Below, piece by piece: positions 384 to 6,790 of a DNA stretch of 7,944 nucleotides (position 1 is its first letter; every line of letters begins with the position of its first letter). Source of the DNA: a virus (taxonomy: Duplodnaviria; Heunggongvirae; Uroviricota; Caudoviricetes); IMG/VR virus record IMGVR_UViG_2585427761_000003, positions 1 through 7,944 of that record. The stretch is one strand, 5' to 3'. Made by a program: the position numbers and the translations under genes. The notes below the pieces were generated by a model. It had not been told where the DNA came from and made no database searches. It worked only from the letters and a program-made list of their open reading frames with translations.

Positions 384-412
384 AAAAAAAAAAAAAACCG
401 CCTTGCGGCGGG
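384..412 (-). terminator. rho-independent terminator for the repressor transcript
   Basis: Plus strand shows A14 (384-397) then GC stem CCGCC (398-402), loop TTGC, GGCGG (407-411). On the minus strand this is a GC hairpin followed by a 14-U tract, 22 nt after the repressor stop (436-434). Confidence 0.8.
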
Positions 413-433: not shown

Positions 434-823
434 TTATTTTTGTCGTGTTATTGGGTCGACGTATTCTGAGTAAAATTCGGTCAGTTTTTGGAGTCGCATT
501 TGAAAAGCTGCCAGCATATTTCTACGTTCTACAGGTGGCAGGTTTCTGTAAACATCAAGCAGGGCCTTCTCGTCATCATCAAGCGCCTCTCTATTTGTCT
601 CTTCTTTCCCTGTCAGTAGCCAAGAAAGGGAAACGTTTGTGGCTTCTGCAATTTTGGCTGCGGAATCTTTACTGATTGTTCCTCTTTTTTTCCATGCGTT
701 GACTGATGAACGACCTACACCAGCGATACGCGCTAAATCTGAACCACTTAAATGATGCTGTTGAGAGATCGTATCTAACCTTTCTGCTAGCGGGGTGTCG
801 TATTGCTTTTTTCTCATGTCCAT
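434..823 (-). CDS. XRE-family helix-turn-helix phage repressor (CI functional analogue), 129 aa, no peptidase domain
   Basis: ORF-track ORF 434..823. HTH signature LSGSDLARIAGVGRSSVNAWKKRG near the N-terminus. Divergent from the Cro-like gene. Only 129 aa, so no room for an S24 (LexA-like) autocleavage domain. The -10 TATAAT (835-830) ends 6 nt before the ATG (823-821), suggesting a leaderless mRNA. Confidence 0.85.
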   Translation of the reverse strand: MDMRKKQYDTPLAERLDTISQQHHLSGSDLARIAGVGRSSVNAWKKRGTISKDSAAKIAEATNVSLSWLLTGKEETNREALDDDEKALLDVYRNLPPVERRNMLAAFQMRLQKLTEFYSEYVDPITRQK

Positions 824-926
824 TTGGCAATTATAACCGTTCAGTGAACACTAACAATTCCTCGAGGTGTTGACTTGTGTTCGTTTTAAGTGAACAATCG
901 TTGTGGTTAGTTGAACTGGAGGTTGT
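824..926. promoter_or_regulatory. immunity switch region: divergent back-to-back promoters and operator-like repeats
   Basis: Leftward promoter (minus strand): -35 TTGTTA (857-852), 16-nt spacer, -10 TATAAT (835-830). Rightward promoter: -35 TTGACT (870-875), 17-nt spacer, -10 AACAAT (893-898), then SD GGAGG (918-922) and ATG 927. Perfect 11-bp palindrome GTTCAgTGAAC at 839-849 lies in the leftward promoter spacer. Related sites: GTTAGTTGAAC at 906-916 (8/11 match) and AGTGAACA at 843-850 and 889-896. Confidence 0.6.
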
Positions 927-1202
927 ATGACAGCATTGGACAAAGCAATAAAGATTGCTGGTGGTATTCGTCCGCTAGGGCGTGCAATAGGGGCTTGGCC
1001 ATCTCAAATACACAAATGGGCAAATGAATACAATGGTCGAGTGCCGACGGGAGAACGGGTTCGTCAAATTTATATTGCAACTGGGGTTACTCCTCATGAA
1101 TTGCGACCAGATTTATACCCGAATCCAACTGACGGGTTGCCTGCTGGAGATAAGGCTAACACACCAAATACACCGGAGTTGATTCATGAAAATCAAGCAT
1201 GA
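927..1202 (+). CDS. Cro-like DNA-binding protein, YdaS family
   Basis: ORF-track ORF. First rightward gene, divergent from the repressor. Motifs A-x-x-I-A-G-G...LGRAIG...P-x-Q-I-x-K-W...TG-V-x-P-x-ELRPD match my recollection of the YdaS/Cro-like family of Rac-type prophages. Good SD GGAGG 4 nt before the ATG. Confidence 0.8.
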   Translation: MTALDKAIKIAGGIRPLGRAIGAWPSQIHKWANEYNGRVPTGERVRQIYIATGVTPHELRPDLYPNPTDGLPAGDKANTPNTPELIHENQA

Positions 1203-1611
1203 ACACATCCGCATGGCGATGAATGCCTGGGCGCGTCCTGATGGCGAAAAAGTTCCAGCAGCTGGAATAACCCAGGCTTATTTTGAGTTGGGTATGACGT
1301 TTCCTGAACTGTATGACGACAGCCATCCGGAAGCCCTGGCTCGCAATACACAGAAAATTTTCCGCTGGGTAGAGAAAGACACCCCTGATGCAGTTGAAAA
1401 AATTCAGGCGTTGTTACCAGCGATCGAAAAGGCAATGCCACCTTTGCTGGTGGCCAGAATGCGCAGCCACAGTTCAGCTTATTTTCGGGAGCTGGTGGAG
1501 ACGCGGGAGCGACTGGTGAGAGACGCTGATGATTTTGTCGCAGTGGCAATCGCCGGTTTCAATCAGATGAACCGTGGTGGCCCGGCAGGAAATGCTGTGG
1601 CAGTACATTGA
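1186..1611 (+). CDS. YdaT-family protein (annotated historically as toxin YdaT; CII-position regulator)
   Basis: ORF-track ORF. N-terminus MKIKHEHI, internal KIQALLPAI and C-terminal AVAVH match my recollection of E. coli Rac YdaT. Overlaps the Cro-like gene by 17 nt; SD GGAG 7 nt upstream of ATG 1186. Confidence 0.75.
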   Translation: MKIKHEHIRMAMNAWARPDGEKVPAAGITQAYFELGMTFPELYDDSHPEALARNTQKIFRWVEKDTPDAVEKIQALLPAIEKAMPPLLVARMRSHSSAYFRELVETRERLVRDADDFVAVAIAGFNQMNRGGPAGNAVAVH

Positions 1612-1682
1612 CTGACAATAGCCATATCGAATCGCTTCCGGCAACTCGTGAGTAAAATGATTCGGTATCAGAAGAGGTGAGT

Positions 1683-2753
1683 ATGGCTAACGCCTGGCTC
1701 AGATTATGGCATGACATGCCAAATGACCCTAAGTGGCGAACAATTGCCAGGGTGTCAGGGCAGCCAATTGCAACAGTGATGGCAGTGTATATCCACCTCC
1801 TGGTGAGCGCGTCACGAAATGTCACGCGAGGTCACATTGATGTCACGACAGAAGATTTGGCAAGTGCGCTCGACGTGACAGAAGAGGTAATTGATTCAAT
1901 TTTGCAGACGATGCAGGGGCGGGTACTTGATGGTGATTTAATCACTGGATGGGAAAAACGCCAGGTGCTGAAAGAGGACAACGGCAATATTTCGCAAACC
2001 GCAAAATCTCCTGCAGAGCGCAAGAGGGCGCAGCGAGAGAGGGAAAGAAAGCGGGAACAAAATGGCGATTGTCACGGCGCGTCACGAAATGTCACGCACA
2101 TGTCACGACGAGTCACGACAGATAAAGATACAGATAAAGATACAGATCAAGAAGATCAAAACACTATGGTCCATGGCGTAAAAAACGCCACGAACCAGGC
2201 AGGGGATGTTCAGACCGTCAATCCTGGTCAGCCAGCAGGCACGACACCGGAAGCCGATTCAGCGTATGCGCTGAAAGCCGATTCGGGCGCTGTGCAGCAG
2301 GTGATGACCGCAAGGCCGGAGCAATCACACCAACTGCAGCAGCCTGAAGCCGATTCCGCCATTCAGCGGGAAGCCGATCGGGTAGTCCCGGAAAGCACCG
2401 GGCAGTCTGTGGGACGAGTGGATTATCCGGATGTGTTCGAACAGGTCTGGCGGGAATACCCGTTGCGTGCCGGGGCAAACCCGAAGAAATCCGCTTTCAG
2501 TGCCTGGAAGGCCAGATTGCGCGAGGGGGTGCCACCAGAGACCATGCTGGATGGTGTGAGGCGTTACGCGAGATACCTGGCGGCGACCGGGAAAGCGGGA
2601 ACGGAATTTGTTCAGCGAGCGACGACGTTTTTTGGGCCGGACCGGAATTTTGAAAACCCCTGGTTGCTCCCGGTAAGCGGCACGAACAACCAGCGTTGTG
2701 TGAATCATATTTCTGAACCGGATACCGAAATTCCGCCGGGATTCAGGGGGTGA
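1683..2753 (+). CDS. phage replication initiation protein (lambda O functional analogue; YdaU-like) containing the putative origin iterons
   Basis: ORF-track ORF 1677..2753 begins at GTG 1677; ATG 1683 with SD AAGAGG (1672-1677) is the more likely start. Immediately precedes the DnaC-like gene with 6-nt spacing. Gene body holds two iteron arrays (see repeat features). The assignment rests on gene order, iterons and a recalled resemblance of the C-terminal region (YPDVFEQVWREYP...FFGPDRNFENPW) to YdaU-type replication proteins. Confidence 0.7.
   Translation: MANAWLRLWHDMPNDPKWRTIARVSGQPIATVMAVYIHLLVSASRNVTRGHIDVTTEDLASALDVTEEVIDSILQTMQGRVLDGDLITGWEKRQVLKEDNGNISQTAKSPAERKRAQRERERKREQNGDCHGASRNVTHMSRRVTTDKDTDKDTDQEDQNTMVHGVKNATNQAGDVQTVNPGQPAGTTPEADSAYALKADSGAVQQVMTARPEQSHQLQQPEADSAIQREADRVVPESTGQSVGRVDYPDVFEQVWREYPLRAGANPKKSAFSAWKARLREGVPPETMLDGVRRYARYLAATGKAGTEFVQRATTFFGPDRNFENPWLLPVSGTNNQRCVNHISEPDTEIPPGFRG
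1807..1879 (+). repeat. iteron array 1: four direct GTCAC(G/A) repeats at about 10-bp phasing plus one inverted copy
   Basis: GTCACG at 1811, 1821 and 1842; GTCACA at 1831 (spacing 10, 10, 11 bp); inverted CGTGAC at 1874-1879. The 21-mer GCGCGTCACGAAATGTCACGC (1807-1827) recurs exactly at 2077-2097. Confidence 0.65.
2071..2160 (+). repeat. iteron array 2 (five direct GTCACG repeats) followed by an A+T-rich tandem repeat; candidate origin core
   Basis: GTCACG at 2071, 2081, 2091, 2102, 2112 (spacing 10, 10, 11, 10 bp). Directly followed by GATAAAGATACA x2 and GATCAAGAA/GATCAAAAC (2121-2160), which is A+T-rich, holds two GATC sites and encodes DKDTDKDTDQEDQ. Confidence 0.6.
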
Positions 2754-2759
2754 TGTGGC

Positions 2760-3506
2760 ATGAAAAACATTGCGGCAGCCGGGGTTCTTGAACGTATTCG
2801 CAGACTTGCACCACAGGCGTCGGTTCCACCGTACCGGACGGTGGAGGAGTGGCGGGAATGGCAACTTGCTGAAGGACGAAAACGCAGCGAGGAGATTAAC
2901 CGCCAGAATCACCAGTTGCGGGTGGAAAAAATCCTGAATCGTTCGGGCATCCAGCCTCTGCACAGCAAATGCTCGTTTGCGAATTATCAGGTGCAGAACG
3001 ACGGGCAAAAATACGCGCTGAGCCAGGCCAAATCCATAGCTGACGAACTGATGACCGGGTGCACGAATTTTGTGTTCAGCGGTAAGCCGGGTACCGGAAA
3101 GAATCATCTGGCAGCAGCCATTGGCAACCATCTTCTGGCGAAAGGTCGCAGCGTGATTGTGGTGACGGTGGCGGATGTGATGCTGGCGTTACACGGCAAC
3201 TACGACAACAAAAACTCGGGCGAAAAGTTTTTGCAGGGGTTGTGTGAAGTTGACCTGCTTATCCTGGATGAAATCGGTATGCAGCGGGATACGCGTAACG
3301 AACAGGTCACACTGAACCAGATAGTCGATCGCAGAACGGCCTCGATGCACAGCGTCGGGATGCTGACGAACCTGAACCATGCGGCGATGAATACGCTGCT
3401 TGGTGAGCGCGTGATGGACCGCATGACCATGAACGGTGGTCGCTGGGTGAATTTTAACTGGGAGAGCTGGCGTTCAAATGTCAGTCATTTAAGGGTTGCG
3501 AAGTAA
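2760..3506 (+). CDS. DnaC-like replicative helicase loader (phage P/YdaV analogue), AAA+ ATPase
   Basis: ORF-track ORF. Walker A FSGKPGTGKNHLAAAIG, Walker B DLLILDEIG, and long stretches matching E. coli DnaC as I recall it (NRSGIQPLH, NQIVDRR, GMLTN, LLGERVMDRM, NFNWESWRS). Starts 6 nt after the initiator stop. Confidence 0.95.
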   Translation: MKNIAAAGVLERIRRLAPQASVPPYRTVEEWREWQLAEGRKRSEEINRQNHQLRVEKILNRSGIQPLHSKCSFANYQVQNDGQKYALSQAKSIADELMTGCTNFVFSGKPGTGKNHLAAAIGNHLLAKGRSVIVVTVADVMLALHGNYDNKNSGEKFLQGLCEVDLLILDEIGMQRDTRNEQVTLNQIVDRRTASMHSVGMLTNLNHAAMNTLLGERVMDRMTMNGGRWVNFNWESWRSNVSHLRVAK

Positions 3507-3913: not shown

Positions 3914-4209
3914 GGGTGAGGGTTTATATCGCCGGTCCGATGACCGGGTATAAAAATTTCAACCGTGAGGCGTTCCACAAGGCGGAAGAGGAACTGAAAC
4001 GGGAAGGGCATACAGTCTTAAACCCGGCAGTACTTCCGGACGGGCTGACACAGCCGCACTACATGGATATTTGCATGTCAATGATACGCTGCGTGGATGC
4101 GATTTACATGCTGAAAGGCTGGCAGCGGTCGGCAGGCGCTAAGGCAGAACTGGCACTGGCGGAGAAGCTGGGGCATGCAGTTATTTTCCAGGAGGCAAAC
4201 AGTGAGTAA
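3910..4209 (+). CDS. DUF4406-like protein (nucleoside 2-deoxyribosyltransferase-like fold), 99 aa
   Basis: ORF-track ORF. GTG start overlaps the upstream stop (GTGA); SD AGGAGG (3897-3902) with 7-nt spacing. N-terminal VYIAGPMTG motif, then NP-x-x-LP and W-x-RS-x-GA-x-AE-x-A-x-A-x-K-x-G-x-V, matching my recollection of the DUF4406 / NDT-like family. Confidence 0.7.
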   Translation: MRVRVYIAGPMTGYKNFNREAFHKAEEELKREGHTVLNPAVLPDGLTQPHYMDICMSMIRCVDAIYMLKGWQRSAGAKAELALAEKLGHAVIFQEANSE

Positions 4210-4666
4210 CCAATGGCGACCAGATATTTGCCCAATAACCGGACGTGCATTTTTCATGTGGATTGAGCATCCGAAATTGGGAAATGTACCGACGTATGGT
4301 GGCCCATTAGACAGTTACACCATTCCAACAAAGGACAGCGATGGTGAGTTTTCGTGTGAGCGTTACGATCATGATTTCGGTGGCTGGGTAGAAAGCGAAT
4401 GTCTAGGGTTATATCTGATTGATGATGAAGAACAATGCAGAGTCTACGAACTCGAGGAGCGCGTTAAAGAGCTGGAAGCGCGGGAAGTTCATTTACCGAC
4501 TCGCTACGGCCTTCGATATGGACATCCGATAAATGCTGATGAGCGCCACGTCATGATACCTAAAGAAAATGGCTGCTGGATTTATCTGGCTGATTTAGAG
4601 CACGTACTACGTGTTGCTGGTATTCGCATCAAAGGAGAGGAGCATGGAAATAAAACCAGAAGATGA
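4202..4666 (+). CDS. hypothetical protein (about 154 aa from GTG 4202; 163 aa if ATG 4175 is used)
   Basis: ORF-track ORF 4175..4666. I prefer GTG 4202 because of the strong SD GGAGG (4191-4195) with 6-nt spacing and a minimal 8-nt overlap with the upstream stop; ATG 4175 has a weak SD and a 35-nt overlap. Acidic, Cys-containing; family not recognised. Confidence 0.6.
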   Translation: MSNQWRPDICPITGRAFFMWIEHPKLGNVPTYGGPLDSYTIPTKDSDGEFSCERYDHDFGGWVESECLGLYLIDDEEQCRVYELEERVKELEAREVHLPTRYGLRYGHPINADERHVMIPKENGCWIYLADLEHVLRVAGIRIKGEEHGNKTRR

Positions 4667-5000
4667 GTTAAGTAATATTGTTTTATTTCCGGTAAAAGAG
4701 GATGACCCACGTAATCAGGTTAATTTTCTTTATGAGCCATCGGAAAGACCATATTGTCATCACGCCTCTGTCCGGGTTGACGAAAAAGAGCGTCAGGTCC
4801 GTTGTAAAATCTGCGGTGCAGTTGTGGAGCCGTTTGACTGGATGCTCTCTGTGGCGAAAAGAGAAACCAGACTGGCAGATGATGTAAGGCTATTGCGCCA
4901 GGAGGAACAGGAAAGGCGGAAAAATATAGAAAAGTTAATTCAGATTGAACGTAACGCGAAAGCGCGGATACGCAGGGCGACAAAATCCAGAACTGAATAA
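4644..5000 (+). CDS. hypothetical protein with Cys/His cluster and basic coiled-coil-like C-terminus (118 aa)
   Basis: ORF-track ORF 4611..5000; likely start is ATG 4644, preceded by AAAGGAGAGG (4631-4640). C-x-H-H ... C-K-I-C arrangement (PYCHHASVRVDEKERQVRCKICG) suggests a zinc-ribbon-like element. C-terminal 45 aa are rich in R/K/E/Q. Confidence 0.65.
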   Translation: MEIKPEDELSNIVLFPVKEDDPRNQVNFLYEPSERPYCHHASVRVDEKERQVRCKICGAVVEPFDWMLSVAKRETRLADDVRLLRQEEQERRKNIEKLIQIERNAKARIRRATKSRTE

Positions 5001-6227: not shown

Positions 6228-6527
6228 TTATAAGAAATCGGTTTCATAACTTTGCCCACCATGATAGATACCGACAATAAAGACTTTTCTGCTATCAACG
6301 GCAAAAGCAATAATCGTTCTGTGGCGGAAATGAGTTACCCGCATCCCCTGGCGAATATCATCGCGTTTATTGCCCCGATGCGGGAATGTAGAAAACCCAT
6401 CAAGATAATCAAGAAGCGCATTGGCATAATTGTCAGCAATGACGTTCCCTGCTTTCTCCGTTATATACCTGTGCAGGTTGATTATTTGTTGTTCGGCCTC
6501 AGGAGTAATGATGACTTCATATGTCAT
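6228..6527 (-). CDS. parE: ParE/RelE-superfamily type II toxin (99 aa)
   Basis: ORF-track ORF. Starts 5 nt after the stop of a ParD-like RHH antitoxin gene on the same strand. Size and sequence (MTYEVIITPEAEQQI...RVTHFRHRTIIAFAVDSRKVFIVGIYHGGQ) fit the ParE/RelE fold pattern. Confidence 0.85.
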   Translation of the reverse strand: MTYEVIITPEAEQQIINLHRYITEKAGNVIADNYANALLDYLDGFSTFPHRGNKRDDIRQGMRVTHFRHRTIIAFAVDSRKVFIVGIYHGGQSYETDFL

Positions 6528-6532
6528 GCAGA

Positions 6533-6790
6533 TTACTTCCCGGATCGAATCGCGGCGCGAACCTGTGAAATGGAGCGTCCGTTGTTTGGGTTTTCGCGGA
6601 TAGAATCAAGAGAGGGGGCGGCTGAATGCGTTAACCACGCTTCGATTGCTTTATCGCGCTCATTCAGTGCGCGAAGCCCTTCACGAATGACCTCGCTTTC
6701 TGAAGCATAGGCACCGGAAGCCACACGGGCGCGCACCATGTCAGCCATTTCGTTAGTTAATGTAATGCTGAATTGTTGGGTTGTACGCAT
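6533..6790 (-). CDS. parD: ParD-family (ribbon-helix-helix) antitoxin, 85 aa
   Basis: ORF-track ORF 6533..6853 trimmed to ATG 6790-6788, which has SD GAGG with 6-nt spacing; the 21-aa upstream extension is Ser/Gly-rich and unprotein-like. MRTTQQFSITLTNEMADMVRARVASGAYASESEVIREGLRALNERDKAIEAWL matches the ParD pattern (N-terminal beta-strand, G-x-Y-x-S-x-SEV-R-x-x-LR-x-L). Confidence 0.85.
   Translation of the reverse strand: MRTTQQFSITLTNEMADMVRARVASGAYASESEVIREGLRALNERDKAIEAWLTHSAAPSLDSIRENPNNGRSISQVRAAIRSGK

Follow-up and report, generated by a model that had tools for sequence, protein, structure and literature searches.

The locus considered here raises the question of whether a prophage starts its replication inside the gene of its own initiator. 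The stretch of DNA analyzed (the window, 7.9 kb) was identified by its gene order as the early-right region of a lambdoid E. coli prophage, and a first-pass annotation had placed a putative origin within the gene at 1683-2753. The data obtained in this study, which consist of sequence comparisons and structure models, support that reading, and with good confidence positions 1811 to 2165 are taken to be the likely replication origin of the prophage. The features on which the argument draws are collected in Table 1.

Table 1. Genes, repeats, and candidate sites in the window
Feature	Position	Strand	Details
CI-like repressor gene	434-823	-	
Divergent promoter-like sites	830-898		consensus scan
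pR-like promoter	870..898	+	TTGACT-17-AACAAT; repressor/cro-like intergenic region; consensus match only
YdaS/Cro-like gene	927-1202		
YdaT/CII-like gene	1186-1611		
Initiator gene, 356 aa	1683-2753	+	"phage replisome organizer" (NCBI name); phrog_3729, E 3e-256
Array 1, four direct iterons	1811..1847	+	GTCACG/GTCACG/GTCACA/GTCACG, starts at 1811, 1821, 1831, 1842
Lone inverted iteron	1874..1879	-	32 bp downstream of array 1
Array 2, five direct iterons	2071..2117	+	GTCACG, starts at 2071, 2081, 2091, 2102, 2112
A/T-rich, purine-rich tract	2118..2165	+	(GATAAAGATACA)x2, then GATCAAGAAGATCAAAACAC; proposed DNA-unwinding element
Mosaic junction	2140..2176	.	N-module (with candidate origin) to C-module (...AACACTATGGTCCATGG)
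Inverted repeat	2167..2197	.	TGGTCCATGGCGT / ACGCCACGAACCA; just beyond the A/T tract
DnaC-like AAA+ helicase-loader gene	2760-3506	+	PF01695, E 1e-17; NF009043, E 4e-150

The helicase-loader gene immediately following the initiator gene also matched the DnaC model NF005931 (E 1e-92, under that model's cut-off), and its product is the presumed partner of the initiator C-domain. Transcription from the pR-like site would pass through the candidate origin. Past the loader gene, the window carries accessory genes, a ParDE toxin-antitoxin pair, and a DUF968 gene.

The annotation had described nine direct copies of GTCAC(G/A) at a spacing of 10 to 11 bp in two arrays about 260 bp apart, together with an inverted copy by array 1, and all of these were recovered. 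The spacings were 10, 10, and 11 bp in array 1 and 10, 10, 11, and 10 bp in array 2; the array starts lie 260 bp apart, leaving the arrays themselves separated by ~230 bp. Only three more copies of GTCACR were present across the other 7.6 kb, and no further iteron cluster was found anywhere in the 7.9-kb window. Neither the density nor the phasing of the repeats was reproduced by chance: the observed 10 GTCAC/GTGAC copies per 310 bp were reached in 0/2000 dinucleotide-preserving shuffles (shuffle maximum, 6), as were the 7 adjacent pairs spaced at 10/11 bp (0/2000; shuffle maximum, 1). The 21-mer GCGCGTCACGAAATGTCACGC, in which both arrays had been said to be embedded, does occur exactly twice, at 1807 and 2077, but relatives do not share it; it was ruled out as the functional unit, and the conserved unit is the 6-bp core. 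A possible DnaA box, ATATCCACC at 1790-1798, matched at 7/9 positions by eye, but its synonymous positions were unconserved.

Array 2 is followed by the A/T-rich tract. A 12-bp repeat, ACAGATAAAGAT, was detected there by Tandem Repeats Finder in 2.9 copies (2118-2152), and no 40-mer of the gene forms a less stable duplex than the one beginning at 2121, which ranks fourth least stable in the window as a whole. Among loci with a detectable array 2, a tract of the form (A)GATAAAGATA(A/C)AGA followed it in 44/44, whatever the iteron type; in 41 of these loci, including those from hosts of 65-69% GC, the 30 bp of lowest GC in the gene fell within it, and the mean GC was 0.23 for the tract and 0.55 for the gene. 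No A/T tract was found after array 1. The tract persists against the codon bias of the host: where gene GC was at least 0.55 (23 loci), GAT rather than GAC was chosen 94% of the time within it versus 41% elsewhere (Fisher p = 8e-19), and AAA rather than AAG 75% versus 38% of the time (Fisher p = 1e-9). Depending on the reading frame, the encoded peptide is DKDKD, QIREE, or DRLDKRR. The tandem repeat had been described as containing GATC, and both the repeat and two such sites, at 2145 and 2154, are present, but GATC is not conserved among relatives. A role for Dam at these sites gained no support from conservation: GATC occurred in the tract of only about a quarter of the loci, some of them from hosts that we take to lack Dam, and the sites were judged to be a by-product of GAT repeats.

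A scan of one genome per species yielded 52 loci encoding the same N-terminal domain, from Enterobacteria, Pseudomonas, Aeromonas, Bordetella, Acidovorax, Chromobacterium, Gilvimarinus, Sphingomonas, and other hosts, and collections of phages and E. coli genomes added more. Both arrays, at 10/11-bp spacing, were kept in 44 of ~50 related loci from Gamma- and Betaproteobacteria and one Sphingomonas, an Alphaproteobacterium, and the host gene GC across array-bearing loci ranged from 0.38 to 0.69. Arrays were undetectable in a few family members (L032, L034, L046-L048, L051, and L055). In the 27 distinct GTCACG-type loci, the hexamer was found at matching gene offsets, with two to six copies in array 1 (four in 19/27) and three to five in array 2. 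Spacings of 10 bp were counted 113 times and of 11 bp 32 times in these loci, and the positions flanking the iterons were almost uninformative. Length differences among close relatives fell exactly within the arrays, such that a gain of 21 bp, for example, corresponded to two more iterons, and the loop encoded by array 1 carried insertions of 7 to 22 aa in relatives. The comparison of homologous prophages that had been proposed as a check was thus carried out, with the phasing kept from E. coli to Pseudomonas, Bordetella, Aeromonas, and Sphingomonas and the peptide varying, the reverse of a retained peptide with lost phasing. A strict helical phase between the two arrays was rejected, since the distance from the last array-1 iteron to the first array-2 iteron was mostly 227 to 229 bp and ranged from 219 to 340 bp. 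The split into two arrays, which had been called unusual, is real, but it is the standard design of this family and recurs in a parallel module, L139.

Three types of iteron were distinguished: GTCACG in 28 loci, GTAACG in 5, and CGAACGC in 11. Among typed loci, arrays 1 and 2 were of identical type within each locus without exception. When the dominant phased 5-mer was picked separately for each region, the same 10-bp unit was obtained for both, the sole exception being L017, with a tie between the iteron and the A/T-tract repeat. The pairing of the arrays was also seen in the peptides of 112 typed cluster representatives (124 aligned). The lone inverted iteron was located at a matching offset in most GTCACG-type loci, with only moderate conservation, and was missing ~30 bp past array 1 in those of the CGAACGC type. 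Residues 45 to 51, encoded by array 1, and 106 to 117, in or before the basic helix of the protein, tracked the iteron type (residues 114/115/117 reading KRQ, AKW, or VRY in the three types), an association that is confounded by shared ancestry. The recognition helix of the winged-helix domain showed no visible covariation with iteron type.

The initiator comprises a winged-helix N-domain (aa 1 to ~95), a basic helix (aa 110 to 127), a disordered linker (aa 128 to 243), and a DnaT-like C-domain (aa ~245 to 356). Both arrays lie inside its reading frame. Array 1 codes for the last part of helix 1 and the loop after it (aa 43 to 55 of the N-domain), with low pLDDT in the loop, and array 2 and the tract encode the disordered linker of the structure model. 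From this model, it appears that the cis elements are placed where the protein tolerates any peptide, that is, in a surface loop for array 1 and in the interdomain linker for array 2 and the tract. The model gives a confident fold for the C-domain, which is homologous to the C-terminal domain of DnaT (E 4e-8). Searched against Pfam at E of 0.01 or less, the 356-aa protein gave no match, Phage_rep_O included. The N-domain aligned with PF09681 over the full model length at 16.6 to 19.7 bits, below the cut-off of 23.3, with E values of 0.008, 0.0009, and 0.004 in three members. A fold search with the full-length model returned only matches with E above 0.4 because half of the model is disordered, and a separate model of the N-domain was used for fold comparison. 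The closest fold was DnaD. The N-terminal winged helix of DnaD serves chiefly in oligomerization, not in specific DNA binding, and the assignment of the reading head to this domain is therefore tentative.

The N-domain family is large, with 1013 representatives at E of 1e-10 or less (clusters at 50% identity), and its members combine with varied neighbors. The same N-module, GTCACG arrays included, was found fused to different C-terminal domains. The gene that comes next encodes a DnaC-like loader in the window and in an Aeromonas phage, a lambda-P-like loader in E. coli L004 and L005, and a Toprim-DnaB primase-helicase in a Pseudomonas phage. The upstream genes differed as well and included YdaT, Rha, and unrelated small open reading frames. 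In these sequence comparisons, the arrays and tract were co-inherited with the winged-helix N-module only, whichever helicase partner is present.

Of 5426 complete E. coli genomes, 2524 contained DNA resembling a 1.2-kb query (window 1600-2800, comprising the initiator gene and short flanks), and in 1647 at least 80% of the query was covered. The isolated phages Tritos and Evi also carry such DNA. Matches filed as plasmids were either large E. coli plasmids carrying the module or circular lambdoid phage genomes, the latter description resting on inspection of one Pseudomonas record, and the other matches were chromosomal records; among the plasmid matches, none was shown to rely on the module as its own replicon. 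Some E. coli matches covered query positions 1-541 alone and others 559-1201 alone, which places a break at ~2140-2158, just past the tract; alternative N-termini are represented by P0032 and P0041. The inverted repeat near this junction scored as terminator-like on the minus strand, and its arms are conserved in L139.

Module L139, from E. coli O26, provides a parallel. Its N-module has no DNA similarity to the part of the window upstream of the junction and no Pfam match, and it is joined to the same C-module. Three copies of AAGGGGCTT at 11-bp spacing are followed by three more 256 bp downstream, then by a purine-rich (GAACAG)n tract, and then by the junction sequence of the window. A Rac-type module carries a lambda-style intragenic origin with five ~23-bp iterons followed by a 12-bp A/T-rich tandem repeat. 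Identity of the window with Rac oriJ was excluded, as Rac-type initiators have a different N-module and lambda-style 23-bp iterons. Because the L139 and Rac-type modules share the plan, intragenic origins appear to be the rule in these prophage modules, and the sequences suggest that the two-array form with a period of one helical turn is one recurrent design among them.

That the DNA repeat and not the peptide is under selection had been proposed from repeated SRNVT and DKDT peptides, and both are present in the 356-aa open reading frame (SRNVT twice, and TDKDTDKDTD). The doubled SRNVT could as such reflect selection on a repeated peptide, or on an mRNA structure, in place of double-stranded DNA. 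However, the array-2 hexamer in the 27 loci was read in frames 0/1/2 at 33/30/36, a near-equal use by which one hexamer specifies different peptides and which rules out selection for a peptide repeat; the array-2 peptides differed widely from locus to locus with GTCACG retained, and both array-coded regions were modeled as loop or disorder. When 23 loci were aligned by codon without gaps, the information at third-codon positions was 1.71 bits inside the array-1 iterons versus 0.61 outside (Mann-Whitney p = 1e-5). An RNA structure was ruled out in that both strands of both arrays folded no better than shuffled sequences (z of -0.1 to -1.3), and the 10/11-nt period is the helical repeat of B-DNA. 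Selection on peptide or RNA is accordingly regarded as extremely improbable. Three-frame reading, varied peptides, synonymous-site conservation, and a tract running counter to codon bias together argue that selection acts on the DNA itself rather than on the encoded peptide, as proposed, and would make the gene a clear example of cis-acting DNA overriding both codon choice and peptide sequence.

Given selection on DNA, the sites might be read by a protein other than the initiator, such as a host factor, a CII/YdaT-like or Cro-like regulator, or a partition or packaging protein, and the absence of covariation between recognition helix and iteron type would be compatible with this. It is nonetheless very unlikely, as the arrays persist from Enterobacteria to Bordetella and Sphingomonas, the upstream regulators and downstream partners vary around an N-module that alone is constant, and the iteron type switches inside one protein family. 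The initiator could also bind the arrays for purely regulatory ends, namely, as an autorepression roadblock or for titration or handcuffing, with strand opening elsewhere. Array 1 lacks an adjacent A/T tract and lies within the region coding for a folded domain, and two separate arrays recall the origin and control arrays of iteron plasmids; moreover, only 7.9 kb of the prophage is visible in the window, and an origin elsewhere in the prophage is possible. Against this, array 2 is invariably followed by the least stable tract of the gene, kept against codon bias, which is the canonical combination of iterons and unwinding element, and the window has no other iteron cluster. A regulatory role of array 1 is in any case compatible with an origin at array 2 and so does not exclude it. 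A purely regulatory function was therefore judged unlikely.

For the favored reading as an origin, we infer a course of binding, looping, melting, and helicase recruitment. The winged-helix N-module, possibly together with the basic helix at aa 110 to 127, would bind the 6-bp GTCACG cores, whose spacing of one helical turn would align the bound proteins on one face of the DNA. Indirect support for such binding comes from the co-inheritance of the arrays with the N-module and from the concerted switching of iteron type. The two clusters of four and five sites, ~230 bp apart, could be looped together, and the resulting oligomer may destabilize the neighboring purine-rich (GATAAA)n tract at 2118-2165. 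The DnaT-like C-domain would then recruit host DnaB via the DnaC-like loader encoded by the adjacent gene, probably assisted by pR-type transcription across the gene, as in lambda. A more speculative division of labor, doubtful as it stands, would have array 2 and (GATAAA)n as the firing origin and array 1 as an intragenic control site, with binding specificity partly self-encoded by array 1. Occupancy of array 1 might then keep the initiator and loader genes from being transcribed, or array 1 might pair with array 2. As, outside aa 106 to 117, only aa 45 to 51, which array 1 encodes, track iteron type, site and reader could change together, and self-encoded specificity, if true, would explain the clean switches among GTCACG, GTAACG, and CGAACGC.

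In the literature searched, the coverage of which was incomplete, neither these iterons nor this origin had been described, and no binding, unwinding, or replication experiment on a member of the N-domain family was found. Origins of this kind have long been known, and the two-array variant appears to be new and widespread. Besides its two arrays and its minimal 10-bp units, it departs from lambda and SPP1 in a conserved putative unwinding tract of the GATAAA type. If the reading of this part of the window as an origin is correct, a search for paired, phased arrays of a 6-bp core with a GATAAA tract behind them would provide a simple rule for finding the probable origin in thousands of prophages and phages that lack an annotated one. 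With its three types of cognate iteron and its three sorts of helicase partner, the family would constitute a natural experiment on the modular exchange of specificity and partner, and the origin with its initiator might be of use as parts for compatible replicons or in marking the replication type of a prophage.

Several known systems share part of this arrangement. Two features of the class of phage replicons with the origin inside the initiator gene (lambda, P22, and SPP1) were observed in the window, namely, clustered direct repeats within the initiator reading frame, where changes of sequence are tolerated, and an A/T-rich tract directly beside them. Bipartite chromosomal origins and iteron-plasmid origins have two clusters of initiator sites a few hundred base pairs apart, one of them beside an unwinding element, and looping or handcuffing is the usual model for them. 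Their initiators are DnaA or Rep_3 proteins, however, their sites of 9 bp or 17 to 22 bp are not spaced at one turn, and their clusters flank genes. In Rep_3 iteron plasmids, the 17- to 22-bp iterons are about two turns apart and Rep consists of two winged-helix domains, whereas the window has a spacing of 10/11 bp and an initiator with one winged-helix domain and a DnaT-like domain. The primosome adaptors DnaD and DnaT are related through the homology of the C-domain to the DnaT C-terminal domain, but both are cellular proteins that are not known to bind origins in a sequence-specific manner, nor are their genes known to contain an origin.

A closer likeness is offered by phage SPP1, in which oriL lies inside gene 38 and is bound by its product gp38 (G38P), with an A/T-rich unwinding element adjoining and a loader gene following (PMC6316719). 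The window likewise has direct repeats in the initiator's own gene beside an A/T-rich element, with the loader gene next, and its N-domain aligns end to end with the corresponding family, PF09681, at a similarity under the Pfam cut-off. It differs in its proteobacterial hosts and its far shorter iterons; in addition, the second SPP1 origin, oriR, lies ~13 kb away, whereas the second array of the window is 230 bp upstream, and SPP1 encodes its own helicase.

The comparison with lambda is the one that had been drawn at the outset. The iterons of lambda are ~19 bp long with inner dyad symmetry, and about four of them form a single array. The lambda origin lies within gene O, and the number of iterons varies among phages, altering the length of the protein (PMC7466680). 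Compared with lambda, the window initiator is not an O homologue, its binding units are 10 to 11 bp with an asymmetric 6-bp core, there are two arrays ~230 bp apart instead of one, and the partner is a DnaC-like AAA+ loader, not P, although relatives do pair the N-module with P. What the candidate origin of the window shares with the lambda type, including the Stx phages 933W and P27, is its mid-gene position, in the linker that joins a putative N-domain for origin binding to a C-domain for partner binding, the presence of direct repeats with an A/T-rich tract on their downstream side, and transcription from pR, predicted in the case of the window. The proposed likeness to the origin within O, with a different iteron, is borne out by the succession of direct repeats and A/T tract in the middle of the initiator gene.

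The C-module of the window initiator was also found fused to an alternative N-module, in the Escherichia coli locus L139. The L139 repeats consist of three copies of AAGGGGCTT at 11-bp spacing, three more copies 256 bp downstream, and then (GAACAG)n. The origin-like layout of this N-module, which gave no Pfam match, parallels that of the window. The initiator gene of L140, a Rac-type locus, carries five iterons of ∼23 bp (CATCGGGTCAAAATG...), followed by a 12-bp A/T-rich repeat present three times; only the last ∼19 residues are common to the L140 initiator and the window protein.

Features of the window and of loci L139 and L140
Feature	Location	Strand	Context or evidence
Alternative initiator N-module with origin-like design	L139, 2160-2500		E. 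coli O26:H11, NZ_CP031922.1
Lambda-style origin in initiator gene	L140, 1942-2100		Rac-type module adjoining racR/ydaV
Inverted repeat, 13-nt arms TGGTCCATGGCGT / ACGCCACGAACCA	Window, 2167-2197		Directly 3' of A/T-rich tract
Initiator residues 114/115/117	Window, nt 2022-2033		One face of basic helix
36-nt direct repeat, copies 75% identical	Window, 2247-2282 and 2343-2378		Disordered-linker coding region
14-A run, then GC hairpin (CCGCCTTGCGGCGG)	Window, 386-411		Just downstream of repressor gene
ParE toxin / ParD antitoxin pair	Window, 6228-6527 and 6533-6790	Minus	PF05016, E 5e-10; PF03693, E 2e-7

In L047 (Serratia) and L055 (Pantoea), the window-type N-domain was present and GTCACG-type arrays were absent; array 2 was replaced, at nt ∼325 to 370 of the gene, by phased ACTACGTA-like repeats together with an inserted domain (YVYYV...GISxNPWAR). 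Residues 114/115/117 were K-R-Q with GTCACG iterons, A-K-W with CGAACGC, and V-R-Y with GTAACG; they are candidate specificity determinants, their association with iteron type being confounded by shared ancestry. The Pseudomonas aeruginosa locus L138 comes from a 50.9-kb circular “plasmid” record (CP137943.1), in fact the genome of a lambdoid phage entered under plasmids. Its initiator open reading frame, with the arrays, falls in an unannotated gap (locus positions 4011 to 4897).

Within the disordered linker, the 36-nt direct repeat encodes the peptide PEADSA.... In several relatives from E. coli and Shigella (P0004, P0007, and P0013), the deleted segment corresponds exactly to the interval between the two repeat copies, which suggests that these deletions were repeat mediated. 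Elsewhere in the window, on the minus strand, the A run and hairpin downstream of the repressor gene look like an intrinsic terminator. The ParE/ParD pair is embedded in the late-early prophage genes.

On the minus strand, the hairpin of the inverted repeat received a terminator-like score. Its arms are kept in L139 (2510 to 2540), where they sit behind an N-module without detected similarity to that of the window. In lambda, an inverted repeat is also present to the right of the A/T tract.
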